The position numbers were made by a program, and so were the translations under genes. This document shows positions 5,112 to 52,090 of a stretch of DNA of 64,000 nucleotides, in pieces (position 1 is the stretch's first letter; each line of letters starts with the position of its first letter). The DNA comes from Takakia lepidozioides. Taxonomy: Eukaryota > Plantae > Bryophyta. The notes beneath the pieces are model-generated. The model had not been told where the DNA came from. It saw only the letters and a program-made list of their open reading frames with translations, and did not search any database. The stretch spans positions 48,112,001 through 48,176,000 of the forward strand of contig CM060733.1 in the NCBI GenBank assembly GCA_030704615.1, in the 5' to 3' direction.

Positions 5112-7306
5112 CATGCAGGCTGATTCAGGAAGACACTGCTTCGGGACAGGGAAGAAGAGAAAGAAAGGCTGTAGAAGCTAGCCCAAGAGGGGCAGACTTA
5201 GCCATAAGCAAAAAGGTAGCGAGAAGCTACATCTAGATAGCGCAAAAAACCAAGAGCCAGCCTAAAAAGCCCAAAGGAGCTTAAGGTACATGTTTCTCGA
5301 GGCCCTGGGATCTATAGTCAGCTGATACTACCATAAGAGAGTTGGGCCCGAGTCTTGTCCGACTTAGAAGACCTTTTATGCCTCCAATTTACCTCCGAGT
5401 CTTCACTAGTACCTACTGGAGATCGCATAGTGCTGAGGGAGCTACCAGCCTTGTGGGAGAGCGTCGCACCAGGTAATTCTGGAATCAGATTCCCTTGTAC
5501 AAAGCCGTCCACCTCTGCCCCATGTTCCATCAAAATCTTCAAGCAATTGGGCTTTTCTCCTGTCGCCGCATCTGCAAAGCCAAGCCTTGCGAGCTTCAGA
5601 CATCAATTCTAAGTGAGACTTACAAAGGATTGTGCGCACACAAACAGGCTTACCAGAGAAAATGACAGCGCATCTGGCTTTCCAAATATTCCACAGGAGG
5701 TGGGCTCTAAGCGTGGCCCACACAGGGCAAGTGGTTCAGATTGAACCATCAGCAGAAAGAGGATTAAAGACAAATCAGAAGCAAGAAATCCTTCCCACAA
5801 GACGTAGAAAGATAAGGCCTTACCCCAAACCTGCCTGGCAACCTAACATTCCACAAAGCAGTGCTCTAAGGTTTCGGAAGCATTAAGATTGCAGATCCTG
5901 CAAGGGGGGGGAGTATCCGGAAGGTGGCTAAGAATAGGTAACACCCGATTGACAAGCTTCCAGAGAAAGCCAGAGATCTTGGCTGCCCTATCTTTGCGCC
6001 AAACATCCTTCCAAATAGGTTTCCACGTGGTGGGGTAGCCAGGCAAATGCAACCATTTTGTAGTCCACTTAGCATCTAGAGAGATGACTGGATTCAGCAA
6101 AGAGTAGCCCATCTTGACAGTGTAAGCAAAAAAAGGAGAGCGGCTATTATCAGCCCAAACCCATTCCCCCGGATCAAATTGCAGTAAGGAGAGGGGAGCT
6201 ATTAAAAACCATAGCAGCCTAGGGTTGGTGTGACCCCCATTGTCAGCAGAAGGGTTCACAACACCTGAAGCCATACAGAAAACACGGATGGCAAAAGGGG
6301 GGGCCTCCAACACACAATCCATTTGCGGGGAATGCAGGAAACCAGATGAGAAAACTTGAAACTTCCAGCCACGCAGGAATCATCCTCTCTTAACAAGGCA
6401 AAAAAGACAAAACGATTACCAGCATCCCCCACCCCCCCCAAGCCAGACAGAGAGAGCACGTCTATTAGCTGGAAAAGATGCAAGGGAGATCCACGAAACA
6501 TGAATGTCGCCAGTAACCACATCTCATCCAGCTCTTAACCTTCTGGTGGAGAGAGCAGCCCCTGCCTCCGTCGGAGGGAGAAGGCCTCCGTCCTCCCAAA
6601 TATGAAGGAAACTGGAAACCCCAGCAGCTTCCCAATGGGCCCATCTGGCCGAGCATGTAATCAACAGCAGTGAGTCTCAGATAGTATTACCAAAAAGAGG
6701 TTGTCTTAAGACCTCCTCCATAGAGGTAGGGGGTCTTTTGGGACAGCTTGGAGCGAATGGTGATCCATGCCCGCCAAATAGAGTTCCACGCTACAGAGCC
6801 GCCGGTGAAAGAATGATTGGAAGAACCACCTTGCACAATCCAACGGAGCGAAGGAGACCAACCTAAGGCGGAAGTAGGGCATGCCTGAAGAAGATGATGC
6901 CTGACAATCAGACTCCACGGGGCCGTAAGATGCTTAAAAACCCTAGGGACCCATTTAGCGAGAAGAGCAGAGATCTGGGATTGAGGGTCAATAATTCCCA
7001 AACCTTCGTTGCCTTTCTTTTGAGTAATCTGTTCCCAACTTACCAGCGCCTTTCTAGACTGATCCGGAGATGAGGCACCCCAAATGAAGTTCCTAACGAG
7101 GGCTTTGATCTTCTTTACTGTGATCGGGCCAGGATGCCAGACAGATGAATTAAACCATCCGGAAGCCAGCAGGACCTGATTGACCACCAAAGCTTTACCC
7201 GCAATAGAGAGAAATAAGGAGCACCAGTATGAAAGCTTCTTTCTAAGATTTTTAACAATCACCTCCGCCCTTTGCTCTTCGCACAACCCATGACCAATAA
7301 GATGGC

Positions 7307-8915
7307 GAGGGAAGCTAGCGTGTGAGCGCGCTCACGCTTAGCGCACTAAGCGTGAGCAGACTTCGTTAAGCGTGAGCAGATCTCTTAAGTGTGAGCAGAT
7401 CTCTTAAGTGTGAGCAGATTTCTTAAGCGTGATCACATAAGGGAAGTGGAGCCTATAGCCGTGGGAAAAGCAGGACCTATTGTCGTGGGGGCGATGTTGA
7501 GTGGAACGGAGGGTAACATACGATGCCTAGGACCTAAGACGTCGAGTTCCATGCATGAAAATTTGAGAGGAATGTGTGGCGAAATTCGTAAGGATTAATG
7601 GCTATGTTGAATGGATGAATGTAGGATGAATGCAGGATGAAAAAAGATAGATGAATGAACCATGGATGACAGCAACACGAGGTTAATTTCGGAGAACTTG
7701 AAATCAACCTTGTGCCAACACGAGGTTGATTTCCGAGTGGACACAGAACGCAAGGTTGATTTGCATCCTACTACTCTTTTTTTTGCGATTTTTTTGCGTT
7801 TATTTTGCATTTTGTTTTGTTTTTTTTTCAACACAAGGTTGATTTGAGAAATGAAAGCATCTTTTTTCCAAATAAAAAATAAAAAATAAAAAATAAAAAA
7901 TCGCAGGATGCAAATCAACTTTGCGTTGACGCAAGGTTGATTTGAGGAATGAAAGCATCCTTTTTCTCAAAAATATAAATAAAAATGAAGTCTCAGGATG
8001 GAAATCAACCTTGCGTTGATGCAACCTTGATTTGAGAAATGAAAGCATCTTTTTTGCATTGTTTTTTGCATTTTGTATTGGCAAATCAACCTTGATTTGA
8101 GAAATGAAAGCATCTTTTTATCCAAAAAAAGTTAAGAGAAAAAAAAAAAATTGAGTCGTAGGATGCAACGTTGACGCAACCTTGATTTGAAAAATGAAAG
8201 ATATTTTTTTCCAAAAAACAAATTGAAGTCGCAGGATGCAAATCAACCTTGCGTTGACGCAACCTTGATTTGAGAAATGAAAACATCTTTTTTGCACTGT
8301 TTTTTGCATTTTGTATGGGACACAATCAAGGTTGCGTTAACACAACCTTGATTATGCTATGGATTTCAATCACCTCTTTCGGGAAATAAATCTTCGTCTT
8401 GCTTAGTATTTCGTGTCTTCTAGTCTTTTGGGAAGTTCAGGGATCAACCTTGCATCAACACGACATTGATTACAAGGGGATTTAATGGGAATTAACAAGC
8501 ATTTGCTGCATCTGTGTTTTCTGAATGTATAGTTCAGGTACATCTACCATATCCTCATTCCGGGGAAGTATCTGAGCGATGACCGTCGATAATACATCTA
8601 GTCTTTAACCATCCACTCATCCATTGTTCATGCATTGCGAAGCGTATGTCTATCCATCAGCCATCTCGCATTCAACCATTCATGAATTATTCATCCATCA
8701 TTCATCCAACATTCATCCAACATTCATCCAGCAGTCATCCAAGTACGCATGATATGTACACTCATTCCCGCGGAAATATGTCTCTGGTGGCTTCCTCATC
8801 CGCGATTGTAGGCCCATGCACCCTATTACGTGAGCATCTTTCCGCTCACAGATTGACATCTTCCCGCTCACGCATCTTTCCGCTCACGGGAGCCGCTCAC
8901 GGACTAGCAATCCCC
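7307..8915. mobile_element. Non-autonomous Mutator-like (MULE) element inserted in the LINE RT
   Basis: 9-bp TSD TAAGATGGC at 7298-7306 and 8916-8924. G-starting imperfect TIRs (GAGGGAAGCTAGCGTGTGAGCG vs GGGGATTGCTAGTCCGTGAGCG on the opposite strand). Subterminal GTGAGC/GCTCAC repeats. No coding capacity. Confidence 0.8.
7680..8360. repeat. Internal tandem repeats of the MULE-like element with a palindromic core
   Basis: Repeated unit ggatgcaaatcaaccttgcgttgacgcaa(cc/gg)ttgatttgagaaatgaaagcatcttttt. The core CAACCTTGCGTTGACGCAAGGTTG is a near-perfect inverted repeat. Confidence 0.8.
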
Positions 8916-9746
8916 TAAGATGGCCAAGAAGGACATGGGATCGACCATCCTGAAGCCAATCAAGGCCTATGTTCTCCCCCCATGGAAGACAATGCGATGC
9001 AGAAACAGGGTCTCTAATCTTGGAGAGAAGCCCCTTGGATTTATTCCAATTAATTCTGAGGCCTGATGCATCACAGAAGGAGGAAATAGCATCTAGTGTA
9101 CGTTGAACGTTGGAGAAGCTGTTGTTGTCAACCAGAAGAGAAGTATCATCCGTATATAAGAAGGATTTAATGTTGTAATCAGATATGCAGGGATGCGGGA
9201 CTCTGAGACCTATGATGTCAGAGTTCTTATTGAGGAGATGGGTAAGACCATCCGCTGCAATTAGAAACAGAAAAGGAGATAGATGACATCCTTGACGAAC
9301 AGAGCGGAAAATTGGAAAAGCACTAGATGATGTGACCATTTACGATGACCTTGTTGGAGGCAGATTGAAGGAGGATCCGAATCCAGCTAAGGAAGTTTCC
9401 ATGAATACCACATTTTTGTATGGCACCCAGAAGATAGTCCCATTCAATGTTGTCGAAAGCTTTCTCGAAGTCAAGCATTAGAAGAGCTAAAGGCTGGTTC
9501 GAAAATGGGCAGTATTAAGGGCCTCACTGGCTAGAAGAATGCTATCGAGAATCATGCGATCTTTCATAAAGCCAGTTTGCTCAGGACTGATCATCTTGCA
9601 TAGCAACGGCTGAAGTCTGGAGGCCAAGGCTTTCACTATAATCTCATAGACAACATTTAGCAAAGTGATTGGCCTATAATTAGCCAAGGAGTCTCTATCC
9701 CCTTTTTTGAAGATCAAAGTGATTATTCCCTGGGATAATTGCGATG

Positions 9747-9935
9747 TGTCGTGCGCATACATATCGCTACACAACTACATCGCTGTCCAAAACCACACAA
9801 CACATGTGCACACCACACACTAGTATACCACTAGTCCACCACTAGTCCAGCCACTAATCCAACCACTAGGCTACAACTAGTCAGTCACTAGGCTGCCACT
9901 ATGCTGCCCACTATGGCAGTCATTAGTCCACACAA
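9747..9935. repeat. Split repeat A, copy 1 (189 bp; element 3' terminus)
   Basis: Near-identical to 10255-10432. It has one extra CCACTAGT-type unit, a 1-bp indel and two substitutions. Confidence 0.95.
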
Positions 9936-10252
9936 TGATAAAGAAGAAGAATACAAGCACGAGCTCACAAATCTGAAGCATAAACTCATGCATATATAAC
10001 CTCATCAGTCAAATACAAGTCAAGCCAAGTGCACCCCACGCCATGGGGAATCCACACTACGGCGCCATAGCTAGGCGCGGTGAGGCTCAACTCGAGAAAG
10101 ATGAGCCTCCCGCGCTTGCCGTGAAGATAACCACTCCAAGGCCTAAATCTGCCTTGACCCCTGGATTGACACTTGGGCCAATCCCAAATGTCAATATGTA
10201 AAAGCTAGCTATTTCCTAGCTAGTTTCACACTAGTGGTAAAATAACTTGACA
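9936..10252. repeat. Split repeat B, copy 1 (317 bp)
   Basis: Matches 20396-20712 with two substitutions seen (catcagtc/catcactc; ccaaggcc/ccagggcc). Confidence 0.95.
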
Positions 10253-10254
10253 GC

Positions 10255-10432
10255 TGTCGTGCGCATACATATCGCTACACAACTACATCGCTGTCCAAAA
10301 CCACACAACACATGTGCACACCACACACTAGTATACCACTAGTCCAGCCACTAGTCCAACCACTAGGCTACAACTAGTCAGTCACTAGGCTGCCACTATG
10401 CTGCCCACTATGGCAGTCACTAGTCCACACAA
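10255..10432. repeat. Split repeat A, copy 2 (178 bp)
   Basis: Direct repeat of 9747-9935, separated from B1 only by GC (10253-10254). Confidence 0.95.
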
Positions 10433-10443
10433 TCGCCCCCCTA
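10433..10443 (-). promoter_or_regulatory. Putative polypurine tract (PPT)
   Basis: Minus strand reads TAGGGGGGCGA immediately before repeat A2, the position expected for plus-strand priming. Confidence 0.6.
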
Positions 10444-10691
10444 GCTGGTGCTTAGGTCCCTCTAAGTCCAGGTAGCCACAAGATGTGATAGTGACCATAG
10501 CCTCACTAAGTCCTCCACCACTATCCCTACTACACTCAAACTCGATAGATCAAGAGGCCGGGTGCAAGAGTTGCCCCATCATTAGTCGCCGTCTTGCAAC
10601 CTGTGAACTTGAGCTTGAGATCTCATGTATTGACTCCTATGAGCTTGGCCTCCCATGTCTTGTTAGCTGCCTCCAGTCATGTCCACTGCCA

Positions 10692-10979
10692 CTATCCCAA
10701 GCAGTGTGGACACAACCAATCTCCGTCAGGAACCTTCTCAAGAGGTGGTGTCAAGCATCCCATATGCCAACCCCTTGAGCATCGATCACACACCAGCATG
10801 GTGGCTGCCCCTTTGGCAGACCCACAGAGCATGCATCTCAAACCTGCAGGTACCACTGCCAAGTTTGGGTCAACTCTGCCATCGACATTGGGAAGGTGAC
10901 ATGGCGCACAATTACGCACATGGTCCTTCCAAGTCATGCCATCCCGACCCTCCAAGATCAGGACCCCTGAGGGCAACAC
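10692..10979 (-). CDS. Integrase C-terminal PHD finger (frameshifted from the integrase ORF)
   Basis: C4HC3 pattern: CMLC...MLVCDRC..GWHMGC LTPPLEKVPDGDWLCPHC. Confidence 0.92.
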   Translation of the reverse strand: MLPSGVLILEGRDGMTWKDHVRNCAPCHLPNVDGRVDPNLAVVPAGLRCMLCGSAKGAATMLVCDRCSRGWHMGCLTPPLEKVPDGDWLCPHCLG

Positions 10980-10990
10980 CTCTCGAACCC

Positions 10991-12358
10991 TCAGAATAAC
11001 ACGCCCTGCAGTAACGTAGGAGCAGTCTGCTGCAAATAAACATAGTCACTAGGGCTAAACCTCCAAACCCCAGGACGATATCCTCCACCACGTATAGTGG
11101 CATACCTCAACGTATCACGGTGTTGTGCAATGGCAAGGTTCTCAAAAGCCATGGGCATGACTTTCTTGAACAACTCTGCACGCTGATCACATGCACGTAC
11201 CCACACGTCCGGGTCGTCAAGGTTAAGGACTTGAGCAGTGTCCCTACGAATGGCTGCAGGCAAATCCGGCTCTCGGCCAAAGAGAAGGAAATATGGTGAG
11301 AAGGAGGCAAGTGATGCTTGTTTGCTGAACCTGTAGCCCATGGCTAACCAAGGAACCTGAAGATCCCAATCTCCTAGGTGTCCCTTCTGCAAGCCATACT
11401 TGCGCAAACCCCTCTTCACCGTCTGAACAACTCTCTCTGCTAAGCCATCGGCCTCAGGATGATCCCGAGAAGTGGTGCGGTGGTCTATCAAGGCTTTATC
11501 ACACAAAGCCTGAAACTCCCCCAAGAACTCTCTCCCTTGGTCTGTGAGTACCTCAGCTGGAGCACCAAATCGGCTAAGCACACGATCCAAGAATGCATAC
11601 GCAGCCCCCTCACTAGCCTTGTCAGGCAACGGAACCAACTCAATCCACTTGGAGAAGTGCTCCACCATCACCAACACATATCTGTGGTGGCGCATAGTCA
11701 GTGGCAACGGTCCTGCGAAGTCAAGACTCCACCTGTAGCCCAATCCCATGATTGGTAAAGGATGCAACTGTGGTGTAGGGGCGTGGAATGAAGCACGCAC
11801 CCTGTCACACACCATGCACCTAGCCACGAACTGTTGCACCTCTGTATGCATACCACGCCACCAATACTGCCCCTGCAGTAAACTGTGAGTGCGTCGCACT
11901 CCAAAATGCCCCAACTCCTCATGGGCATGCCGCACTAACCGTGCACGCTGTGTGGGGTGAGGCACAATCCTCACCCGACCATCCTCCCACACTCGAAGTA
12001 GGTGTATCCCCTCCCACTTGAACCTCTTGGCTCGTTGCAGGATCCGATCCCTCTCCCTGGCAGTCACAATGGCTGCCGTGTCTCCCGTGCGGAGGTAGTC
12101 CAACACAGCCGAATCCTCATGTATATCTCTGGCACCACCTAGCTCATCACTAGCCTCAGGGTCCTCAGACACTCCGTCTACAGTCATCCCTGTTGTAGGT
12201 CCAATTTGACCTCCCGATGCCAAGATACACAAAAATGCAGATGCGTGCCATCCCGGCACCATCTCCTCGTCCGTCTCACCATGCCACCGAGCTCCAGTGT
12301 CATCCTGCTGGCTCATGCATGGATTGCGACTCAATCCATCCGCATCCCGATTGACCAA
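10991..12358 (-). CDS. Gypsy-type DDE integrase (pol segment)
   Basis: HHCC zinc domain (HEELGHFG...CMVC) and catalytic D,D35E (WSLDFAGP, LTDQGREF, LAERVVQTVK). Confidence 0.95.
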   Translation of the reverse strand: MVNRDADGLSRNPCMSQQDDTGARWHGETDEEMVPGWHASAFLCILASGGQIGPTTGMTVDGVSEDPEASDELGGARDIHEDSAVLDYLRTGDTAAIVTARERDRILQRAKRFKWEGIHLLRVWEDGRVRIVPHPTQRARLVRHAHEELGHFGVRRTHSLLQGQYWWRGMHTEVQQFVARCMVCDRVRASFHAPTPQLHPLPIMGLGYRWSLDFAGPLPLTMRHHRYVLVMVEHFSKWIELVPLPDKASEGAAYAFLDRVLSRFGAPAEVLTDQGREFLGEFQALCDKALIDHRTTSRDHPEADGLAERVVQTVKRGLRKYGLQKGHLGDWDLQVPWLAMGYRFSKQASLASFSPYFLLFGREPDLPAAIRRDTAQVLNLDDPDVWVRACDQRAELFKKVMPMAFENLAIAQHRDTLRYATIRGGGYRPGVWRFSPSDYVYLQQTAPTLLQGVLF

Positions 12359-13700
12359 ACCGGTCGATGCACAACCTGAAAGTCATACTCCTGGAGTATA
12401 AGTGCCCACCGTGCAAGCTTCCCCGTAAGCTTGTCTGACTCCATCAACCACTTGAGTGGCTGGTGATCCGTGACAAGGGTGAAAAGATTGCCGTATAGAT
12501 AGCACCTGAAGTGTGCCACGGCCCACACTGCAGCTAAGCACTCTCCCTCATATGAGCTGTACTTAGCCTCTGCAGCGTTGTTCGAGCGGCTAGCGTAAGC
12601 CACTACGAACTCTCTTCCCTCATCATCCACCTGTGTGAGCACCGCTCCAAGCCCCAGCATGCTCCAATCCGTATGCAGCTGAAAGGGACGCCCCCTGATA
12701 GGTCGTCTCAAGATAGGCGCCGAGGTCAACCTCGCCTTGAGCTCTTGAAAAGCTCGTTCCTGCTCATCTTCCCACTGCCACTCCTGGTCCACCTTGGTCA
12801 GCTTGGTTAGAGCCTTTGCAATGGTACTAAATCCCTTGACAAACCGTCTATAATAGTTTGCCAACCCCATGAAAGCTCGAACTCGGCTCACATCCGTGGG
12901 GCGTGGAATTTGTGCAATGGCCTCTACCTTAGTCTGCTGTACCCCAATCCTCCAGGATATATCATGTGACCCAGATACTCAATCTGGTTGTGGAAAAACT
13001 TGCACTTCCCCGGATGCAACTTCAATCCGTGCGCTCTCAAGCGCTCCAATACCACCTGAAGGTGTCTCTCATGCTCCTCCATCGTAACACTAAAGATGAT
13101 GATGTCATCTATGTAGCACCGAGCAAAGTCCACCCCTGCTAGAATCCTATCCATGACTCTCTGAAACTCTGCAGGAGCATTCTTAAGCCCAAATGGTAAG
13201 AACCGCCACTGATATAGGCAATCCTTGCCGTGCTCATTGATCCCCCAGAATGCCGTCTTTGCTTGTCCGCCTCCTTGATTGGCAACTGGTGATATCCGGA
13301 TCGTAAATCCAAAGTGCTAAAGGCCTTAGCATGCCCGATGGCATCAAAGATCTCCTCTGGTGTTGGCATGGCATACTTATCGGACTTGGTCTGACGATTT
13401 ACAGGCCGGTAATCACCGCACATACGTCTCTCCGTCCAATTGCCATAGACATCCTTCTTGGCTGGCATCACTGTGGCTGAAGCATACTCTCCACCAGAGA
13501 GCTCCACCAAACCTGCCTCCCAGAGATCTTGAGTCCTCATCTGAATCAAAGACCTCTCCATGTCACTGTATCTATAGGGTCTCCGAAAGATTGGCGTGTC
13601 AGTGGCCAACTCAATACGGATCTCTTGACCCTTCAGTGCTCCCAAGTCCTTCAAACTGAAGGCAAAGCAATTCCTGTAAGCCCTCAGGAACCGCCGTATA
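12331..13700 (-). CDS. Reverse transcriptase and RNase H (pol segments, several frameshifts)
   Basis: RT: RMCGDYRPVN, STLDLRSGYHQL, MPF-type FLPFGLKNAP, CYIDDIII, KCKFF..YLGH. RNase H: LHTDWSMLGLGAVL, YSSYEGECLA, TDHQPL. Confidence 0.95.
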
Positions 13701-14109
13701 CGTCGTCTCTCTCCTCCGGTGACAATGGGTCCAATGTCAGGCTCCCAATTGTCCTCCGTAACTGCAACCTTAAGTCCAGTGGGCTTAGAGGTAGAGGACG
13801 CGTCCAGTGGTTGCTATGTTGCAACCTCTTGAGCAGTACTCCCTGCCTGCTCAGTCAATGACAAGGCCTCATCCTGCCCCATCATCTCATCCTTGAGGAC
13901 CTCCTCAACCCGAGAAGAATCCCCAACCTCATCCATCACACCGCCTTGGCTGCCAACTCCCTCTGAACCTCGAGCACCTCCCACGTGTGCCATGGATGCA
14001 TGCACCCCGTGGTCCTCACATGCTCGCCCCCACTCACTGCCTGTACCGTCTCGGTAGGCAGAGAGACCATTGAGGGAAGTGTACTCCGCACTCTGCGTTG
14101 CTCAGCCAG

Positions 14110-15060
14110 AGCCAAGCTGATAATCCAGGTCAAGCAATTGAGATCCATTGCTTGCCCCAACACTTGACGACGTGATGCCTCAGAAAGAGACGACACCGCC
14201 GTGGTACCAGTGGTAAAACCCATTGCCCGCTCACGCTCGTCAGCATTAGGCTCCACTAACTGCTGCAACTGAGCATCCCACAGGAGGCCAGGTCCACTAT
14301 CCCGGAAAGCATGCGATCCTGGGAAGCTGAGCAGTGTAGGTAATGCTGCTCGTGGTTGACCCACCTTGTTGACCACTGCCAAAGGCAAACGGTCATCGTG
14401 TCTCACACGCTGAGACTGCCTCCCTGTGTCCAGAATGCTATCCACTGTGAGATGTGCTGGCCGCTGCACCCCATCAAATGCACGCTTGAGCAGTGCGGGT
14501 GGCATCAAGTTAGTCCACCATAGCCGTGGACGATGAGCCCGTGACCCCACTGTAGCTGCATCTAGCAACACTGCTGACCCAAGCCACGACCGGACTTGAT
14601 GCACACTGGCCATCACCCTGGCCCGAGAATCGCCCATCAGTGGCACATTCTCCAAGATGTATGCTGGAGATACAGCTTGATGAAGCTGCAAGTGGCGCAA
14701 AACCCGCACCATCTCCCAAAACAGACCCGACCTCGAGTCTCGCAATCCATTGCCATGCCCGGCTGATGAATGCCCTTGGCAGGGCCAACCTGCCACTACC
14801 AGATCAATGGAGCCAACCCGCTCCAAATCCTGCGCCCCCAGCAACGAAATGTCTGCTGGCAAGGCCTGCTGATATCCACGAATTGCAGACACCGACAACA
14901 ACTCAGGGTACCGCTGCACCAACTGAGCAACATGGCGAAGTGAAACGCGTCGTGCAGTCTCATCCCTCTCCACATACAGGTAACGCCGAACTCGTACACC
15001 TGCCTGTAACACAGCAGCCAATCCGGTGCTGATCCCGCCAAACAAGTCCAGAAGACAAAT
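14110..15060 (-). CDS. DNMT3-like C5 cytosine DNA methyltransferase domain inside the pol polyprotein (within ORF 13936-15231)
   Basis: Canonical motifs in order, uninterrupted: I LDLFGGISTG; II YVERD; III DI; IV DLVVAGWPCQ (catalytic PC); GLRDSRSGLFWE; VI YILENV; VIII DAATVGSRAHRPRLWWTNL; IX ERERAMGF; X RRQVLGQAM. These parallel DNMT3A motifs LSLFDGIATG, GGSPCN, LFENV, AAHRARYFWGNL, EMERVFGF and RQRLLGRSW. Confidence 0.95.
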
Positions 15061-15199
15061 GCCTTCATCCGGATACTGCCACACAATAGGTGTGGTGTCC
15101 AATGGAGACAACTGAGGTGGTCCTGGTGCAATCCCCGCACTCTCCTCCTCTCCTGACGGTACAAAAGCCTCCACCCAGGCTTGTTGCACCCGTCGATCA

Positions 15200-17982
15200 G
15201 CATCCGCTGCAAATCCTTGCTCGTGCCCCACAATGGAGTCTGAGCAACCATGGTAGGCAACTCCGCCATACCATACATGTCATCCTGCTCTCCCGGAGGT
15301 GGTACATCCTCTGAATGAGCATTGCCCTCAAGCAACTCTCTAGGCCAACTCACTGCCGCTGTGAATGCTGCTAGTGTCGGCATCTTGCCTCGCTGGGCAA
15401 CCGCAACTCCTCCTATGAACGTCACAGGGAGCTGCACACGCCGGCCCTCCCCTGACTGCCATGCAGGCCTATAGGAAGCTGACTCCTCCCAAAAATCCAG
15501 GGTGAAGCCCATGGGGTACAACACTGCCCCACCAACCAGGACATCGTATGAGACTGCGTCTGTCACAATGGCCTTGGCTCGCATCACTGAGCCATCTGTA
15601 GGGTGATCCGGCCGTAGTCTGATAGCCAACTCACGCCGTGTCATGCCCCGAGCCTGCTCCGATCCTCCCAGAGACGTCTGTATCTGGAAAGGACAAGGCT
15701 CCATATCCGCCTCCGTGAGGCCCAAGCCTGCAATAGCAGCTCTGCCCAGCATCAGTGGCTGAGCTCCCGAGTCCAACAAGACCCGCAGTGGCCGGTACCT
15801 CTTGCCTGCCGGTCCACTCAAACAGAAAATGCCATCCTGGTTGTCTAACATGACAACTCCAGGTGTCACCATGGCGCGCTCAATGGCTGGCCTAGCTGGC
15901 AGCTCCATCAACCTGGCAGCTGCAGCTTGCCATGGCGCCGCCGTGGCAGTCTTGACCCTCAAATCCGAGGATCCCTCCGGCACTACACCTCCCACTATCT
16001 CCGCAGAAGATGAAGTAACCTCCCCACTCTCACAGAGTGTAGCTGCCAGCCTGAACACCTCAGCTGGTCTTACCCCCGGCGTCGCAATCATGGTAGCCGA
16101 GAACAATGGAGCCTGGCACACAGATGTGGCCGCTCCTAGCAGCACACTAGCTGCCGTAGCCTTGGCAACACTAGGTAGTGGTGCTACCCGTGTAGCTCTC
16201 CCCAATGGCATAGTAACCTCCGCCTCGGTAACAGTCGAGCGAGAACTAGGTGCCATGGATGGCGTCGACACTGTCTCCGCCAATGTGAATGACTGAGGAA
16301 GCCTAGCCTGACGGCTTGCCTCCCCACGCTGTGGATCCAACTCCACCTCTGCACCTCGTGGCTCAGGAACTCGTGCTGCTCCTCGAGTCACGGCTGCAGC
16401 AGACTCCACCTGCACTAGTGGTAGTGCTGCTCCACACATGAATCCCATGCCTCCCATATCTCCTCCCTCAGGAGCAGGAGGTGGACCATCCGGCCTTAGA
16501 GCCGGTACCACCTGAGCTGTAGCCATGGCAGCGAGCCTCTGCTCTAGCTGCTGAAGCCGGTTGGCCATGCCTTGGTCAACACCCTGACCTCCGCGTCCTT
16601 GGCCACGTTGAGCTTGCCCTTGGCCTCGTGGCTGGCCACCTCGTCCTCTCTGGGCTGCTCCACCTCGCCCCCGGCCACCATTGTTCCCTTGGAACTGGCC
16701 TGGGCGCAACTCAGGATGCAAACCATAACAGGCCTCTTCATGCCCGTGCTTGCCACAATGCCCACACTGCAACTGTGCAGGCTGTGCATGTGCCGACCCT
16801 TTGCCTCCCTCTGGGCAATCCTTCTTGACATGGGGTCCTCCACATGTCCAGCACACACCACATCCGCCCGTTGTTGGCCAGCAAATGAAGGGAGAGACCC
16901 CTGCATCTGAGGTCCTCTCTGCCCTTCCCTGAGCTTCACCTGAGCCCCCTTGTTGCCTTGAGCACGTTGAGGTAGTGGTTGGCTAGGATCACCACTACCC
17001 CGTGGTGTCTCCTTAGCAAATCCACCATGACCACTCGTTCCTCCACCATGTTGAGCTCTATCCGCTCTGCCAGCAAAAACACATTTGCTAAGGTGGGTTG
17101 GGCCGCTTGTAGAGAGTTGCATCCCGCACCCTTCTCCTCAGCTCCTTGTCCAATATCCCATACCAGAATTGGACTGCCTGAGCTTCCGTAACCCCTTGGG
17201 TTACATTTATCAGCGCCTCATGCGAGTGAAAGCCTCCCTCCAAGCTCTCGGTCGGCTTCCGTTGGAACTCTTGCAAGCTCCGCAACTTCTCTGTCCTCAC
17301 CCCCTTGGTAGTTCCCTCTCAACTCTTCGAAGAACTCCACAAACAGGGTTGAAGGCAGGCACGGTGCTAGTGTTGGTGCGGTAGTGGCTTGGGTGGACTT
17401 CGTAGCTACTGTACCACCAGTCCCACTAGTCCCCTGCTACTTGCTGAAGCTGCCGGTGCAGCGGCAGGTGCAGCCACTGCCCTCGTGGCTCTAGTGCCCC
17501 TAGTGATGGAGACATAGTCGGGTGACCAGTACATCCTCCACTCCTCGATCTCAACCTCATGCCCCCGCCTGAACTCATGGTAATCATCCATAGGCGGCCC
17601 CTCAAGGTGCTGAAACAGCCCCTTCCATGCCATGAAAGGTGTAAATAGTTGTGGATTGCGCATTTGCTGCAAATCACACCAACTATCAACTCTTGGATAA
17701 AATCATCCAACTCGATGGTGCCCACCGCCCAGAGTACCTTCGTGGCCTTTTGGTAGCTCCATACATCTCCTCCATTGTGTCCCACAACAATGGCAAAGAA
17801 ACAACTTGCACTGCCGGTATGAGTCCTCCTGATTCACAATCCGAATCAGAACCTTCCGTGGAAGACACAGGAGGTGAAGGTGGCCTAAACCGCACACCTC
17901 GTCTCGTGTACCCACTAGTATCGCTAGTGCTCGAACCGGCACTGTCCCCAGCAACTAGTGGCACCTCCGTGTTGACACTCAA
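15200..17982 (-). CDS. Gag with two zinc knuckles and aspartic protease (frameshifted)
   Basis: CWTCGGPHVKKDC and CGHCGKHGH knuckles, RGG-rich linker, protease VLLDSGAQ...DVLVG. Upstream gag-like pieces (LQEFQRKPTES..., QAVQFWYGILD). Confidence 0.85.
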
Positions 17983-18699
17983 CCGGTCATGAACATGTCC
18001 CTAACCCCTCTCCACAAGGTAACCGGGTAGAGAACCTGTTACGGTTTATGGTTTGGAATACTAAGTTCCTAACATAGCCTACATCTGTACCTGCATCCAC
18101 CGCAAGCACTCCTATGGTTGGCTGGTCATCACCTCCAACCTCACCACAGGAGAAACAATGATGGTCTGGCTGGTCATCACCCCAGCCTCACCATCGACAG
18201 CATGCTCTAGGACTGGCCGGTGATCAAATCCGGACCAATCACCTATAAAAACAAGCGCCCACACAAAACTAGCATGGCGCAAAGTCAAGCATGCAGGTAT
18301 GGAGGGGATCCAAACACAAGAAATCAGAACGATAACTCCCCCACACCAAAAACAACTCCACGGTGTTGCTCCTGCAAGGACACCCCAGCCCAAACCCGGA
18401 CTGACTCTTGCCTCCACCTACGGAAAGGTCTTGGCCTAATGAGAGGGTGGAAACTACGAGGAAGAGAAGCTAAAGCAATGCCTAACCCCAGCATGCCCTC
18501 ATCCCAACACTCTTCCTCTCCTCTCTTCCCTCACTTGCATGACCATGGGAATATCATGAAGATACTCCTCAAACCGCCCTCTACGAGCTTCAAAATTCGG
18601 CCTTCCAGACCACATGCCAGTCCTTAGGCAGTCCACCAGTGCCTCCACGAGTCAGCACAGGCCGTCCACAGGTCAACACGGGCCACCACAGACCAACAC

Positions 18700-18965
18700 A
18701 GGCCCACACAGCTCACTGGTCACAGCCATCACAGTCCCACAGGCCATCAGGCACAACCCGTCACAGCCCCAAAGGCCATAGGCACAACCTGTCACAGCCC
18801 CGCACAGCCCGTCACATCCCCAAAGGCCACGGCACAGCTTGTCACAGCCCGTCACAGCCCAAAGGCCACGGGCACGGCCTGTCACAGCCCCTCACAGCCC
18901 GTCATAGCCCCACAGGCCTCAGGCACGGCCTGTCACAGCCCCTCACAGCCCATCACAGCCCCATC
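18700..18965. repeat. CACAGCCC-based tandem repeat in the retroelement 5' leader
   Basis: Many copies of (gt)cacagccc interspersed with aaaggccac.gcac. Confidence 0.85.
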
Positions 18966-20379
18966 CATGGCCGCTCTGGCAGTTTAGCCATTTCTCCAAG
19001 GGGTTTAGCCACGCCAAGCTAGGGTTTGTGTCTCTTGGACTCTAGGCTTCTTTCCACTGAGCTATGGCGGTTGTGAGGAAATCAGCAAGGTATTCTTGCT
19101 CTTTCGGCTCCCACACACCACCATAGTAGCCCTAAGCCATGAGGTGGTTGCCACAAACCAACCCTTCTTTCTCACTTAGCCTCCCCAAACACGCCACTAA
19201 ACTCAATGGCAAACAACCAAGCCCTGCTGGTTCCCAGCCCTTGTGAGCACTCATTCAAGCCCTCTCCTTGGCCATAACATCTGTCTTAGAGCCTATTCCA
19301 GCCCCCTACACCTGCTGCTTCAAGAGTTGCGCTCCCTTCAAGCTTGAAGTTGAAACCCCAACTCACATAGGCCCTACAAGTGCTTTTCTTTCACTCCAAG
19401 TGGAAACCAGCCCTAGACCTTCCATTCTAGCTCTCTAAAGCTTGAAAACAATAGCCTCAATGGGCTGAAGGCATGCTCCACACATGCCCCACTCTCACCA
19501 TAAGAGAATCAGCTCCTTTGCTTCATTTCTTGCACCCACAAACCTGAAAATACAAGCTTCAGCAGGCTGAAAGCATGCTCCACATGCCCTACAGGGAAAC
19601 CAGCCCCTTCCTTCCTTTCTTGCACTCCCACACCTGAAAGTGCAAGCCTTCACCAGGCTGATAGCATGCTCCACACATGCAACCTCTTCACACAAGAGAT
19701 ATCGGCCCCCTATCTTGGCTCCTTGGTTCCTTGATGCTCTCTAAGACAAGACTAAGCACTCCACAGCCTTTGCCAAGCTCCTGAAACCCTAAGGCTTACA
19801 TTTCCAGCCACAAGACACTTCTCTTGTGGTGCAAGAACTCTTCTTCCAAGCTCTGAAACCCTAGGTGCACATTCCATGGCCTTGCCGCACCTCTTAGCTC
19901 ATGTTCCAGCCCTGCTCTCGCCATGACAAGAGCCCTCTCAATGCTGAAGCTCGAGATTGAAACCCAATCTCACCATACTCCACAAAGTGCACTGATTTGC
20001 CCCAAGCCAAATCAGCCCTTTCGCTTGGTCTTGCAATCCTTCACACAATGAAAGCTCGCATTCCCAAGTCCAGTTCTCAGCTTTGCCACCAAAGCCACTA
20101 TAACCTGCTCTTGACTGGTCCTCTTCCCAATCGTGCTTGCTCATGCATGTACACAATCTGAAACCATCAAGGTGCTCTGGAATTACCTGCAGTATGGTGC
20201 TTTCATCTCTGAAGCTGAAGATCGAACGCCAAGGTTTACCACCTCGTAACCCACATCGCCTCCGCTTCTAACAACCAAGAGCTCCATGGTGCTCCTTGCA
20301 TAACAACTTGGTTTCCCTCATTCTCAAGCAAAAACTACAAGTGCTACAACTAACTCGTATCTAGCACTCATAGATACGA

Positions 20380-20395
20380 GCTGATCTTTCTCGAG
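20380..20395 (-). promoter_or_regulatory. Candidate self-priming primer-binding site
   Basis: Directly downstream of repeat B on the element strand. CTCGAGAAAGATCAGC is 15/16 complementary to 20551-20566 inside B. No TGG-starting tRNA PBS is present. Confidence 0.55.
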
Positions 20396-20712
20396 TGATA
20401 AAGAAGAAGAATACAAGCACGAGCTCACAAATCTGAAGCATAAACTCATGCATATATAACCTCATCACTCAAATACAAGTCAAGCCAAGTGCACCCCACG
20501 CCATGGGGAATCCACACTACGGCGCCATAGCTAGGCGCGGTGAGGCTCAACTCGAGAAAGATGAGCCTCCCGCGCTTGCCGTGAAGATAACCACTCCAGG
20601 GCCTAAATCTGCCTTGACCCCTGGATTGACACTTGGGCCAATCCCAAATGTCAATATGTAAAAGCTAGCTATTTCCTAGCTAGTTTCACACTAGTGGTAA
20701 AATAACTTGACA
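20396..20712. repeat. Split repeat B, copy 2 (317 bp; element 5' terminus)
   Basis: Direct repeat of 9936-10252, followed by TSD GATG. Confidence 0.95.
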
Positions 20713-21430
20713 GATGGCATAATGCCCTTGATGAGGATGTCGTTAGTTAAGTTAACAAAATCCTCACCACAAACAGGCCAAATTGCTTTGAAAAGCTCAA
20801 CAGGCAGCCCATCTAAACCAGGGGACTTTAAAAAAGCAAGAGATGAGAGAGCTTCCCCAAGCTCTATTTCATAAAATGGGGCAGAGAGCTTTTCCAGTCA
20901 GCAGGCAGAATGACTGAGGGGAAAACAGACAGTCCACTTCCTATCTGGATAAGATCATATCCTCAGAGGAGGTTCTCCTGTTGAACAAAGATGAGAAGTG
21001 GGAAGCAGCTAAGGAAGACAACTTCTTAGGACGAGAAATATGAAGAACTGACTCATTCTTCAGAGAGACAATAGTGGTTGCTGCCTGACGTTGCCTAGCC
21101 TTAAGGAAGAAATATGTAGACATTTTTTCTCCCTTAAGAGAGCAGCTGATACCCGCTTTACATCTCAAATTATCATCTTTTATCTTGAGCAGCTCAGCTA
21201 AGTTTCTTTTGGCCAAGAAATAAGAATCCCAAGTAGCAGGGGAGGCCCAATCCTTCTCAATGACTTGCTGACAGTGAGACAAACACTTAAAGAAATCTAT
21301 GAAGCTCTTTTACATCCGCAGTATGTACTGCTCGGCTGTAATGATGGTTCCCACGCCAGACCCATTGAGCTCATTCCCTGCACAAATGCATTGTAAGTTC
21401 ATCGACACACTACCTCCATGTGTTTTTACA

Positions 21431-22385: not shown

Positions 22386-22529
22386 TGTAATTGCTTGTCA
22401 AGCAGCCTCTTGCAAATAAGTTTTCAAAAAATACTTGATCATGCAACCAACCAGAACGTGTATCCAAGATGCCTACTACCTATTTAACATGTAGGTGTTC
22501 ATTACTGCAAAATAATCAAGAGAGAAGAT

Positions 22530-23055
22530 CAACACCTCGGACACAGTAGAGGGGTCTGACTTTTGGGCTGCTCAGACACAGCAGATTGAGAGATTGCCGG
22601 CGAGGATACTGCAGTTATAACGTTGCAATCCTTAGTCAATTTCTTGACCTCTTTCACTGGGAATAGGGTACAGCCAAGCATACAGAGCGTGTACTCCTTC
22701 TCTGTTTCTGTAGAGACGCCCACCAATTCGATGCTCATTTGCGAGAAACCAGGGGTCATCTCAAAGCGGGGGTGAATTCCCCCTCCATAGAAGATGCTGC
22801 TCTGGGATGTAATTGCCAGCTGAAGTACACCCGAGACGTTAAAAATGTTCTTCGAACCTCCTGCATTCTTATTCAACTGCACATCTGTAAGCGAGACTGT
22901 TGCCAGCTGCACCGGTGTCGTTGCATCCGATTCATTCAAAAAGTGGGTATATGGGGAATTGAATCTCTCCTTGACGAATTTGCTTCTGGGAGTGGATTGC
23001 ATAGCATAATGGGCTTGGAATCCTTAGACTACAGCCAATTCCCATTTTGAAATGA
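22530..23055 (-). pseudogene. Fragment of a DUF2921-type plant protein gene
   Basis: SFQNGNW..., FNVSGVLQLAIT, RFEMTPGFSQMSIELVGVSTE...LCMLGC resemble the N-terminal part of DUF2921 proteins. Contains a stop/frameshift. Confidence 0.45.
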
Positions 23056-35285: not shown

Positions 35286-35369
35286 AGGGTCCTATTGTCG
35301 TGGAAGCAGTTATAGCGCTTAAAAAAAGAGGTATAGAAAGAATGGAATGGTCAATGTGAAACTTACTGA

Positions 35370-36720
35370 GGTTTTCTTATTGAAGAAGAGGTGAAAAAAA
35401 AAGGTTGGGTGAGTCATCATGAATCTTACTTAGGGATTCTTGCATGAACAAGAGGCAAGAAAAGTTTGGATGCTCATTGTCAAGCTAGCTGACGTTTCCA
35501 GTATTTCATCCATGGTGGATGGATGATGGATGGATGAAATATTTAAGGAGAGGTTAAAAATAATAAGGATGGGCAAGAACAGGCCCCAAAATTGACCCCT
35601 CATTGTGAAACAGGCAATGGTTTTTGTTAATATAGATGAGGTGAAAATTAAACAGATGGTCATCTTCAAGCTTATTTAGGCTTTGTTTGTGAAGATGTGT
35701 AACAAAATGAGCGGTTTATTGTGGAACTTGTTCAAGTTTGTGTTATTGAAGATGAGGTGAAAAAAAAACACATGGTCATTGTGATTGCTTATTTAGGGTG
35801 TCTTTGTGAAGAAGAGGTAAAAAAAAACATTGAGCTATCCTTGTGAAACTTGTTTAGGATTCTGTTATTGAAGAAGAGGTGAAAAAAAATCAGATGGTCA
35901 TCATGAATGTTTATATAGGGTTTGTTTGTGAAGAAGAGGTGAAAAAAACAGTTAAGCTCTATCATTGCCAAACTTGTTCAGGTTTCTGTTATTGAAGAAG
36001 AGGTGAAAACAGAAATCAGATGGTCATTATGAATGTTTTTAGGGTTTGTTTGTGAAGAAGAGGTGAAAAAATTGAGCTCTCATTCTCAAACTTGTTAAGG
36101 TTTCTGTTATTGAAGAAGAGGTGAAAAAAATATTAGATGGTCATCATGAATGCTTATTTACGGTTTGTTTGTGAAGAAGAGGTGAAAAAAAAAGTTGAGC
36201 TCTATCATTGTCAAACTTCTTCAGGTTTCTGTTATTGAAGAAGAGGTGAAAAAAAAACTTGAGCTCTACCATTGTCAAACTTCTTCAGGTTTCTGTTATT
36301 GAAAAAGAGGTGAAAAAAAACCAGATGGTCATCATGAATGCTTATTTAGGGTTTGTTTGTGAAGAAGAGGTGAAAAAAATTGAGCTCTATCATTGTCAAT
36401 CTTGTTCAGGTTTCTGTTGATGAAAAAGAGGTGAATAAAAAATCAGATGTCATCATGAATAAATTAGGGTTTGTTTGTGAAGAAGAGGTGAAAAAAAACT
36501 TGAGCTCTATCATTGTCAAACTTCTTCAAGTTTCTGTTATTGAAGAAGAGGTGAAAAAAAAATCATATGGTCATCATGAATGCTTATTTAGGGTTTGTTT
36601 GTATAGAGGACGTGGAAAACAAATGAGCTATCATTGTGAAACTTGTTCAGATGCCTGTTATTCAAGAAGAAGTGGAAAAAAAAACAGATGGTCATCATGA
36701 AGCTCATTTACGCAATGCTT
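35370..36720. repeat. Minisatellite of about 55-60-bp units anchored on GAAGAAGAGGTGAAAAAA, with two alternating subunit types
   Basis: Alternating 'cagatggtcatcatgaatgcttatttagggtttgtttgt' and 'ttgagctctatcattgtcaaacttgttcaggtttctgttatt' spacers. Confidence 0.9.
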
Positions 36721-36949
36721 CTGTAGAGGCCGTGAAAAAATAAAATGAGCTTTCATACTGACACTTGTCCATGTTTGGCAGGCCCTCGAACAAAAAATAA
36801 ATTTATTTTTATTTTTATTTTTTATTTTATTTTGGGCCCGAAGCAATATTGGGGGTGGGGGCAGAAGTGGTGTGCGTTGACGCACTCAATTTTAAAGGCT
36901 CGTTAACCAAACCCGATGAAAAAATAAACTACCTTTCATGACGAGACAT

Positions 36950-49780: not shown

Positions 49781-52090
49781 TGTTGGAATTCAAGTCCTTA
49801 CCAAGTTACTGCTACTCAAAGTTACTGTGATGACAAGTAGGACTTCAATAATAGTAGTGCTGACAAGTCACAGTTAAAAATAGAGATAAGCCTCAGTTAG
49901 CTAAAAGTTAGCTAAAGTTATTAGTGACTTAAGTCAGTGTACCAGAATAGCAGGTGGAGATAACTTGAGTAAAAACATGGAATTATGCTATAGTTATCTC
50001 AACTATTCCTGGATTAGACTTTGAGTAAATAGGGAGAGCTCGGAGGGTGGACACACAACTTGTTGTGGTCCTATGGTTGGGTGGAGAGTTATCAGTAATC
50101 AATTCATCTTTTATCTCTATTCTCTGTCGAATTCCAACATGGTATCAGAGCGAGGTTTTGTCTAAGAGATAGAGGGACATGGGTATTTGATTTACAACCT
50201 ATAGGCTTGAGTGCTAACACGGTATCAGAGCGATGTTTTGTCTAAGAGATAGAGGGAGATGAGTATTTGATTTACAACCTATAGGCTTCAGTGCTTGGTG
50301 TTAGATTTGGTAATTTGAGGGTGTTTTGTACTTGGCAAAACATCAAATTATCATCATGGCATCTAGTTCTGCTGATCATACATGAATGGAGAAGTGAGAT
50401 GGTCACAATTTTCATACATGGAAAATTAAGATGGATTCATTCTTCATGAGAAAGATCTGTGGGAGATCACATCAGGAGAAGCGGTTGCACCAGTTCTAGC
50501 ACAGCCTGATGATAGAGAGATCATAACGCATAAATCACTCCTGAGCAACGATTTTTTGAGAAAAAAGATAATTAACTTGAGGGACTATGTTGTTGAATGT
50601 GGCTGATTCAATACTTCATCATGTTGCATATGCTAAAACTGCTAGAGAAGCATGGACCAATCTATGTGTCAATTTTGAAAGAAAGCATGTCGTCAATCAG
50701 CTCTATCTTAACCAAGAGTTGAAAGATGGAGAAAAGAAGTTCATTTCACGAAGAAGAAACACAGAGTCTGTTTTCTTTTGTGGCATAAGAGGTCATTATG
50801 CATGTGAATGCTTCAACAAAAAGCTAGACGATGAGAAGAAGAAGAAGTTACATAGTGAAGTTGCAACGGCAATCATGGCTGATAGAACTGAACTTTTTGT
50901 TGTAGCTTTGTCAATCTCTCCTAGTTGTAGAGATGTGTGGTGAATCATTGATTCAGGAGCATCTCAACATATGACGTTCCAAAGGGAAGCATTCTCAACC
51001 TTCAAAAAACTCTTTGTGGGACATAAGGTGTCTCTTGGAGACAACAGTACTAGTCTTGATATCCATGGAAAATGTACTGTTGTGTTTCAATTATCATCTA
51101 GAGTTTTTGTGACGGATGTGAGTATGGTAAACACCATCGCAACTCATTTCCAAAAAATAGAGGTTCTCGAACAAAGAAGGTTCTTGAGCTGATGCATGCA
51201 GATCTATGCGGTCATATGTCGTCTGAATCTCATGGAGGTGCAAAATATTTCTTGACCTTCATTGATGATTTTTCTAGGAAAGCATTTCTTTACACGATGC
51301 AAAACAAATTTGGAGTTCTCATAGATTCAAAGCATTCAAAGCTTTGGTGGAGAATCAAACTGGGAAAAAGATCAAAACACTTCGGTGTGATGGCGGTGGT
51401 GAATACGTTTCAAAGAATTATAATCAATTATGTAAGGAGAATGGTATTGTGAAACAATCAATCACACCATATACGCCAGAACAGAATGGAGTTGTAGAGA
51501 GGAAGAATCGAACACATGTTGAAAGTGTCATGAGGTGTATGTTGCAACACATGAGGTTGGACCTCCGTTTCTTGGCAGAAGCAGTGGTGACTGCAACATA
51601 TATCTATAATCGACTTCCTAATAAGACAATATCTGCAAAGACATCTAAAGAGGTTTGGAAGGGTGAGAAACCTTCAAGTGATCATTTGCGAGTCTTTGGT
51701 TGTATTGCTTTTGCTCATATTCCAAAAGAGATAAGGAAGAAATTGGATGCAAAAGCAATCAAGTGTATCTTCATTGCTTATTATGAAGAGACCAAAGGGT
51801 ATAAGTTGTATAACCCCGAGAGCAAATATATAATCATCAGTCGTGGTGTTATATTCAATGAGTCCATGAACTTTCATTATGAAACAGTAGTTCCAAGTTT
51901 GGACCATGAAAAAAAGAACTTGGCTCTAACTTATGAAAATAAAATGGAAGAGGAGATTGTTGAGGAGATTGTTGAGGATCATATGGAGGAGATACAATCT
52001 ACTATGTTTGAGAAACCCTCAAAGGTATCTTCTGCCTATTTCATTGATAGTGATGAACCGTAAAGTGTCTCAGATGCACTTAGTAGTGAG
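49781..52090 (+). mobile_element. Ty1/Copia retrotransposon, 5' half: LTR 49781-50139, PBS 50140-50151, gag, protease, integrase; truncated
   Basis: LTR ends TGTTGGAATTC...GAATTCCAACA followed by TGGTATCAGAGC. Motifs FHTWKIKM, CGIRGHYACEC, IDSGASQHMT, HADLCG, FIDDFSR, RCDGGGEY, QNGVVERKNRT and LRVFGC. Several stops and frameshifts. Confidence 0.9.

Follow-up and report, generated by a model that had tools for sequence, protein, structure and literature searches.

A Gypsy-type retroelement of Takakia lepidozioides bounded by the two halves of a palindrome inside its long terminal repeat

Introduction

The textbook substrate of the integrases of retroviruses and long terminal repeat (LTR) retrotransposons is the end of a linear complementary DNA (cDNA), foamy virus and HIV-1 integrate mainly from such linear ends, and the productivity of circles carrying two LTRs (2-LTR circles) has long been argued. 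Productive 2-LTR circles are argued for in the account of PMC1180852, according to which both strands of the CA-NN-TG palindrome at the junction are cut in vitro by foamy virus integrase so that 2-nt 5′ overhangs remain, and HIV-1 integrase tetramers are likewise described as cutting the palindrome at the 2-LTR junction (PMC1905944). Here we describe a retroelement of 10,966 bp in the moss Takakia lepidozioides, located in a window of 64,000 nucleotides (GenBank assembly GCA_030704615.1, contig CM060733.1, positions 48,112,001 to 48,176,000 of the forward strand; all positions below are those of this whole window), which is a Gypsy element by its proteins and not a canonical LTR element by its ends, since it terminates in the two halves of a palindrome that lies inside its own LTR.

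Two described groups of algal elements come into question for comparison. KnitGypsy-Dnmt3 of Klebsormidium nitens (de Mendoza et al. 2018, PMC5890265) is credited in a legend with a DIRS-type repeat structure and Gypsy domains; the main text of that paper does not mention 'target site', nor did we find in it termini, a target-site duplication (TSD), a palindrome, a priming mode, a second form or a mechanism, and no further paper naming the element was found in the literature searched. In Chlamydomonas reinhardtii, the families Gypsy-14a, -18 and -22, as given by Craig et al. 2023 (PMC9940879), start with TGTC, carry the order polypurine tract (PPT)-A-GC-B, where A and B are the left and right parts of the LTR, and repeat A at their end, the library entry of Gypsy-18 ending with the GC retained. 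Among the Gypsy families 1-14 of the same source, the TGT of the 3′ LTR is immediately preceded by CA-GC in ten, and four are ordinary, while the legend for the active Gypsy-7a, which has made 86 new insertions in CC-4532, describes a left LTR that lacks the final 8 bp of the right one. Gypsy-2, -7, -8, -9, -10 and -11 are presented there with TGG-type primer sites and with 6-8 bp copied from the LTR end that, together with GC, separate the PPT from the 3′ LTR, so that the Chlamydomonas families, as far as these entries go, suggest a series from a tiny to a long A. The string 'palindrom' is absent from the main text of PMC9940879, in which we found no mechanism either.

Results

Layout and ends of the element

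Self-comparison of the window returned two pairs of direct repeats, A and B, within an element that occupies positions 9747-20712 on the minus strand and reads B2-internal-A2-GC-B1-A1 in its own orientation, in agreement with the coordinates and order of a preliminary description of this DNA. The element opens with B2 (20396..20712, minus strand), the 5′ terminal repeat, which starts TGTC, and its internal region closes with a PPT containing a G6 run (10433..10445, minus strand), found at the same position in relatives. Directly after the PPT comes A2, the left part of the 3′ LTR (10255..10433, edge at 10432/10433, minus strand), followed by GC and by B1, the right part of the 3′ LTR (9936..10252, minus strand), which probably comprises the rest of the unique 3′ region (U3), the repeat region (R) and the unique 5′ region (U5). 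B1 abuts A1 at 9936/9935, an LTR end-to-start join, and A1, which repeats the left part of the LTR at the terminus (9747..9935, minus strand), ends in GACA, the 3′ end of the element, where many host copies also end with unrelated flanks. B1 and B2 differ at 2 of 317 positions, and A1 and A2 show two differences and an 11-bp indel within a micro-repeat.

The termini TGTC and GACA are the two halves of the palindrome GACAGCTGTC, an intact copy of which stands inside the 3′ LTR at 10249..10258 and represents the putative integrase cleavage (att) site, whereas its central GC (10253-10254) is missing from the termini. GATG borders the element on both flanks, downstream at 9743..9746 and upstream at 20713..20716, as a 4-bp TSD, so that the ends proposed in the preliminary description are borne out by the flanking repeats and also by the interrupted target. 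The flanks are the two parts of a single reverse transcriptase (RT) in open reading frame (ORF) 2 of a long interspersed nuclear element (LINE), recognised by PF00078 (3′ part 8884..9746, 5′ part 20713-21309, minus strand). When TSD lengths of 0-6 were tried, the LINE frame across the empty site was open only after removing 4 bp or 1 bp, and only 4 bp are duplicated; because the frame is restored with a 4-bp TSD, the ends of the element are fixed independently of its repeats. The interrupted LINE ORF2 is itself decayed, with a zf-RVT fragment at 5843-6379, and the element sits in its RT region. As nine 10-bp palindromes occur within the element, the palindrome by itself is unremarkable; what exceeds chance is the coincidence of its halves with the element ends, along with its recurrence at this junction in related elements. 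No second copy of the element was detected by self-comparison of the 64-kb window.

The layout in related loci

A search with the integrase alignment yielded 80 metagenome loci and 9 genome-bin loci, of which 86 were examined, corresponding to 70 unique loci after deduplication (20 uninformative, 50 informative). Behind the integrase, 25 of the 50 informative loci carry A-B-A and 19 a single A followed by other DNA, with four more showing A-B and then something else and two cut by the contig end. The split layout thus extends beyond the window copy, and ordinary two-LTR ends, whose prevalence the preliminary description had set against its own proposal, were present in none of the 50. Likewise, none of the 12 related 5′ ends, or of 13 including the window, had the mirror form B-A-B-internal-A with A ahead of B; the chance of finding none among 13 would be 0.001 if mirror copies made up 40% and 0.055 if they made up 20%.

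The related loci form four more LTR families (F1-F4), whose A and B parts are unrelated between families except near the palindrome. At 30 tallied junctions, from five LTR families plus L083, the A2/B junction is GACAGCTGTC or a decayed form of it, and 27 of 28 departures from the palindrome are C>T or G>A. L044 and L056, whose A end is unresolved, stand outside this tally, L044 having two deamination-type changes; L015, L025 and L033 are probably one insertion, which was counted once in the locus census and three times in the join, homogenisation and palindrome/TSD tallies. The palindrome is also found in loci with 46-52% integrase identity (L083, L086), and the A-B-A layout around the conserved GACAGCTGTC is a trait of the clade.

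A perfect 4-bp TSD flanks 8 of the 11 elements tested, and 3 of 4 bases match in two more. Among elements with both ends visible, those of the form B-internal-A-B-A include the window copy, L002, L035 and L069 with a perfect TSD, L067 with 3 of 4 bases and L060 with none. A second form, B-internal-A, has a perfect 4-bp TSD in L009, L022, L070 and L075 and 3 of 4 bases in L017. The preliminary description had not foreseen the second form, which lacks the A-B-A block.

No relative was found among viral contigs. Nine matches came from prokaryotic genomes, of which six are mis-binned eukaryotic elements and three were weak and excluded; L081-L086 are eukaryotic retrotransposon contigs contaminating four prokaryotic genome bins.

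The B/A joint in host short reads

The joint between B end and A start is present in contigs of all four host sequencing runs compared (three samples, three studies), and a misassembly of the A-B-A block, which the preliminary description had named as the other result that would speak against it, was dismissed on this ground. Where host contigs leave the element (12 of 267 rows of loose ends listed in the comparison of ends and 24 of 3050 in that of joints), the largest listed rows lie at the A end at 10255, with 32 contigs in run X1 and 28 in run X4 and an agreement of 0.36 and 0.38, as expected of unrelated flanks, and those listed where ordinary LTRs would have their ends continue into the element's own sequence. 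The family is very abundant in the host, 123,746 contigs of run X1 matching it, and contig depth can neither count copies nor phase A against B. Run X7 yielded 2 contigs, and run X13, with 0 reads, carries no weight in the comparison.

Priming, regeneration of the LTR and the B/A join

The primer-binding site (PBS) is a 12-nt stretch directly after B2 (20384..20395, minus strand). A transfer RNA (tRNA) primer site was rejected here, as the PBS lacks TGG and is complementary to the LTR of the element itself; the PBS-like site of the preliminary description is where it had been placed and is not of the tRNA type. Its perfect complement lies in B2 at B positions 151-162 (20551..20562, minus strand; second copy at 10091-10102), which would mark the transcript 5′ end and the self-primer. 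None of 500 shuffles matched as well as PBS and B do in the window, and in relatives, scored with mismatches allowed since the copies are decayed, 10 of 16 copies pair with at most one mismatch; the self-primer falls at B positions 151-183, and its sequence differs per family. The predicted transcript start often lies about 30 bases behind a TATA-like motif, and a comparison of L081 with L016 revealed a compensatory change in the self-primer pairing. Priming thus looks like the self-priming of Tf1, and B probably holds the promoter, R and U5. In L002 (1835-1860, F1) as well as in L081 and L016 (F4) the self-primer forms a short inverted repeat together with the bases immediately preceding it.

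In every family A starts directly behind a G-run. In F2, divergence between A1 and A2 is 0.073 within elements compared with 0.105 across elements (0 of 5000 permutations), and 14 of 25 doubleton alleles are shared within one element, with 4% expected. The resemblance of A1 to its own A2 is what would be expected if both derive from one template in each cycle, A being regenerated, and the PPT-adjacent start of A together with the homogenisation of A1 and A2 indicates that reverse transcription produces A-GC-B as the genuine LTR. The block A2-GC-B1, viewed earlier as a normal 3′ LTR after a PPT, does not start with TG.

The B/A join varies between copies. Among 16 F2 loci, five joins are blunt, four have a 2-base overlap and three are one base short, and the others contain extra PBS bases (two), a PPT base (one) or a microhomology deletion (one); in F1, seven of nine joins are of one clean type and two keep PPT-side bases, one of these with filler. 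Examples are PBS bases in L056 and L057, PPT-side bases in L005, L007 and L060, filler or duplication in L007 and L068, and a deletion in L052. As the joins contain bases derived from PBS and PPT, they appear to bring together the ends of linear cDNA and were likely made anew. On a single contig, L039 (3700-3880) shows a fold-back consisting of the B end, a PBS copy and the inverted first half of B, stopping exactly at the palindrome half.

Coding part

The element encodes, in this order, gag, a protease (weak match), a C5 DNA methyltransferase, RT, RNase H, an HHCC-DDE integrase and a PHD finger, the window copy being broken into several frames. All coding parts lie on the minus strand. Gag and the aspartyl protease (14796..18000) are broken into several frames upstream of 16982, with zinc-knuckle-like motifs seen by eye and a protease match (Asp_protease_2, E 0.031) below the cut-off; the long 5′ leader contains degenerate 10/20/51-bp tandem repeats (18644..18963). 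Between protease and RT, the C5 cytosine DNA methyltransferase domain (13936..15279; PF00145, E 5.5e-13) was assigned by Pfam match and homologue search, with homologues in Marchantia, Calypogeia, Sphagnum and Klebsormidium. RT and RNase H fall into three frames (12331..13813; PF00078, PF17917/PF17919), while the HHCC zinc finger and DDE core of the integrase share one open frame (10991..12382; PF17921, PF00665 and alignment), and the C-terminal fragment with the PHD finger is in a frame separate from the core (10692..11045; PF00628, E 1.6e-11).

The best PDB matches of the integrase alignment are Ty3 Gag-Pol and then foamy virus integrase. The DDE integrase of the preliminary description was recovered, no tyrosine recombinase family was found in the 38 of 57 ORFs (at least 70 aa) that were scanned, and the profile scan of the element proteins found no chromodomain family, a PHD finger being present instead. 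Among named integrases, the closest come from liverworts (82-84%) and the next from Klebsormidium and Closterium, and longer relatives reach Haematococcus, Tetrabaena, Volvox and Pleodorina. In a quick integrase tree the window, liverwort, F1-F4, Closterium and Klebsormidium rows group with an SH-like approximate likelihood-ratio (SH-aLRT) value of 88, which is under the 95 mark. The position of the methylase is labile in the clade, lying between RNase H and integrase in L086, P0155 and P0160 and absent from L084/L085, and several Marchantia gene models are gag-methylase frames of the element type. The C5 DNA methyltransferase, the PHD finger, the B-internal-A form and the self-priming go beyond what had been described at first.

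Other features of the window

Just beyond the LINE lies an exon with a DUF2921 N-terminal domain (22529-23023). A pentatricopeptide repeat (PPR) protein with E and DYW domains (54124-56673) has an inverted second copy (62317-63998) that is 84% identical over 1.7 kb, and the two flank a mitochondrial carrier frame at 60431-61375. Furthermore, the window contains an integrase fragment with a retroviral SH3-like domain, likely of Copia type (51278-52063), near an 80-bp tandem duplication (50136-50295), a 61/122-bp satellite array (35320-36780) and a region of degenerate 83-90-bp repeats that includes inverted copies (7800-8470).

Discussion

The reading we prefer, with a probability of about 0.65, is that a Gypsy-type element is inserted by the halves of a palindrome inside its LTR, that its DDE integrase likely cuts this palindrome as if it were a ready-made LTR-LTR junction and that the genuine ends of the cDNA likely become joined together. 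The RNA would start inside B and prime its own reverse transcription in a Tf1-like manner, and reverse transcription would produce from the PPT two ordinary LTRs of the A-GC-B type, the sequence of which is present in the element. In the 5′ LTR, integrase would then nick each strand of the palindrome behind CA, and the resulting 2-nt 5′ overhangs would serve a 4-bp staggered integration in which the central GC would be lost and the observed 4-bp TSD made. End-joining would link the end of B to the start of A in the linear cDNA, most likely before integration in a 2-LTR circle or its nicked equivalent, giving rise to B-internal-A-GC-B-A. The bias towards the 5′ palindrome is observed as a pattern, and our guess at its cause is that the 5′ LTR may become double-stranded first, well ahead of the plus strand's arrival at the 3′ LTR, and may be loaded with integrase first. 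Cutting at the one-LTR stage, two cuts or recombination between the A copies might each produce the B-internal-A form, which would be a dead end, as it is without a repeated R. Shielding of the 3′ palindrome by the element's own methylase was considered and found no support, since L084/L085 have no methylase while their sister L083 has the palindrome. We favour a circular intermediate, with joining after integration as the less probable course.

Several observations weigh against this reading. All of its mechanistic steps are deduced from integrated DNA, and a joined circle by itself does not account for the 5′ bias. The self-primer has 2-3 mismatches in 6 of 16 copies, and homogenisation of A in F1 is weak (p 0.048 for all sites, 0.11 for transversions). 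Among the 13 elements with both ends visible, L060 and L055 have no TSD match and L036 is untestable. The related loci are short-read metagenome contigs, among which chimeras occur, as L005 and L006 agree over 2.7 kb and then differ. In L016 and L081, A-GC-B continues straight into the internal region, which may reflect either a cyclic assembly path, L081 having a terminal overlap of 127 bp, or tandem copies with one shared LTR. Moreover, a row of loose ends for the B start is not among the 12 of 267 and 24 of 3050 rows listed for the host.

The order of events could also be reversed. If integrase cut and integrated first at the 5′ palindrome of linear cDNA, and the break were closed by host end-joining (giving B/A) or by single-strand annealing (giving B-internal-A), no circle would be needed; such a course shares the first three steps, from self-priming to the palindrome cut, and differs only in when the ends are joined. 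One intermediate would then account for both forms and for the 5′ bias, and the filler at joins, the microhomology deletions and the missing TSDs of L060 and L055 fit break repair. We nevertheless consider this order unlikely, because the A of Gypsy-7a is only 8 bp, a fragment that would need to survive and be re-joined routinely, and because seven of nine F1 joins are of the identical clean type. The preliminary description had instead proposed a 2-LTR circle cut inside the LTR. When fully ligated, such a circle has two equal palindromes, either of which would be cut with the same chance, and mirror copies would exist but would have been missed here. It offers the simplest route to the B/A join, and retroviral integrases do cut 2-LTR circles in vitro; a short-read assembly could in addition collapse the B-A-B 5′ end of a mirror copy, B being about 280-360 bp long. 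Copies of B, however, differ by about 8-16%, which argues against a collapse, A stands upstream of B at none of the 13 5′ ends, and the Chlamydomonas consensus entries as given (14a, 18 and 22 whole; 3, 6, 5a and 21 split) all have the block at the 3′ end. The element ends do coincide with palindrome halves as a cut inside the LTR predicts, but a mirror form expected equally often is missing from the 12 related 5′ ends, and in this symmetrical version the circle appears quite improbable.

Templated replication in the manner of PAT and Ngaro, with RNA running through B1 into A1, the join and A1 being inherited and integration left to the DDE integrase or to a tyrosine recombinase acting in trans, is slightly less probable still. 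The identical repeat order and the dominance of a single join type in F1 and in the host would suit it, yet A1 matches its own A2 and not other A1 copies, the joins contain PBS- and PPT-derived bases, and a 4-bp TSD goes together with the lack of a recombinase in the ORFs scanned. Finally, plants commonly contain LTR elements in tandem or rearranged form according to PMC11899658, and an ordinary LTR element might here have been misassembled, rearranged in a one-off event or nested in a solo LTR. We give this next to no credence: 25 independent related loci and four more LTR families show the layout again, the joint occurs in all four host runs compared, the LINE frame fixes the ends, and nesting in a solo LTR predicts A outside on the left and B outside on the right, the opposite of what is observed.

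Beyond the single element, it is conceivable, at somewhat less than even odds, that a large Gypsy lineage across chlorophytes, charophytes, liverworts and mosses has uncoupled its att sites from its cDNA ends, its integrase opening an encoded palindrome within the 5′ LTR, with end-joined DNA of the 2-LTR-circle type as the obligatory productive intermediate and the active Gypsy-7a as a living member or a parallel case. A whole lineage would then appear to use the chemistry of the circle junction as its normal route, at a site encoded inside the LTR, and joined or circular copies would be the normal way of entry rather than a dead end, a question that an active element with the same layout in a model alga makes directly testable. 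LTR finders that demand two full LTRs miss such elements, which affects estimates of repeat content, the dating of LTRs and 'gene' models among seed-free plants, and the element in addition carries a DNA methyltransferase and a PHD reader. In our literature search, no paper describing the palindrome or the pathway was found; Repbase reports, Craig's 2021 thesis and most subscription journals lay outside its scope and may describe the structure. The layout is already in print through two legends, whereas the att palindrome, the second form, the 5′ bias, the self-priming and the join made anew were not found in print.

Compared with known systems, the window element shares the canonical features of Ty3/Gypsy, namely the order protease-RT-RNase H-integrase, an HHCC-DDE integrase and TG...CA termini with a 4-bp TSD, with a methylase inserted before the RT. 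With PAT and Ngaro, and with TOC1, it has in common the order X-coding-Y-X-Y (as given for SymbioDIRS) and an internal junction made of joined ends; these elements integrate as circles and have no fixed-length TSD, and in contrast to them the window element has a DDE integrase, a 4-bp TSD, a loss of two central bases, a PPT and a self-primer, no recombinase having been found. The CA-NN-TG geometry and the loss of two central bases resemble the palindromes of foamy virus and HIV-1 (PMC1180852, PMC1905944), by analogy with which the cleavage is proposed; there, as described, the palindrome is created by the joining of cDNA ends, whereas here it is encoded inside the LTR and the end-to-end join is not the att site. 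Tf1/sushi elements and plant Tcn1, in the account of PMC6317226, similarly lack a tRNA primer site and have a PBS complementary to their own predicted 5′ end, but possess two full LTRs and chromodomains in place of split LTRs and a PHD finger. The REXdb survey reported there required two LTRs with TG/CA ends and for this reason would not have collected elements such as ours. Ginger DNA transposons share the TGTNR start and the 4-bp TSD as presented in PMC2836005, and differ by terminal inverted repeats of 40-270 bp and no RT, compared with a 4-bp terminal inversion, RT and RNase H here. Identity with PAT/Ngaro, chromoviruses or Ginger was accordingly rejected, in view of the DDE integrase and TSD, of the PHD finger without a chromodomain, and of the RT without long inverted repeats, respectively. 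KnitGypsy-Dnmt3 comes close in combining a Gypsy pol with a C5 methyltransferase and, by its legend (PMC5890265), in the split repeat order; the K. nitens protein P0167, probably a copy of it, has the methylase-RT-RNase H-integrase order of the window element, with 46% identity in the methylase and 58% in the integrase. In Chlamydomonas, the integrase motif of Gypsy-14a as given in PMC9940879 is, by eye, the same as that of the window element. Gypsy-7a, which was compared by layout, differs in its TGG-type primer site and in a PHD finger that its legend places before the integrase, and its 8 bp plus GC between PPT and 3′ LTR amount to the layout of the window element with an A of 8 bp.

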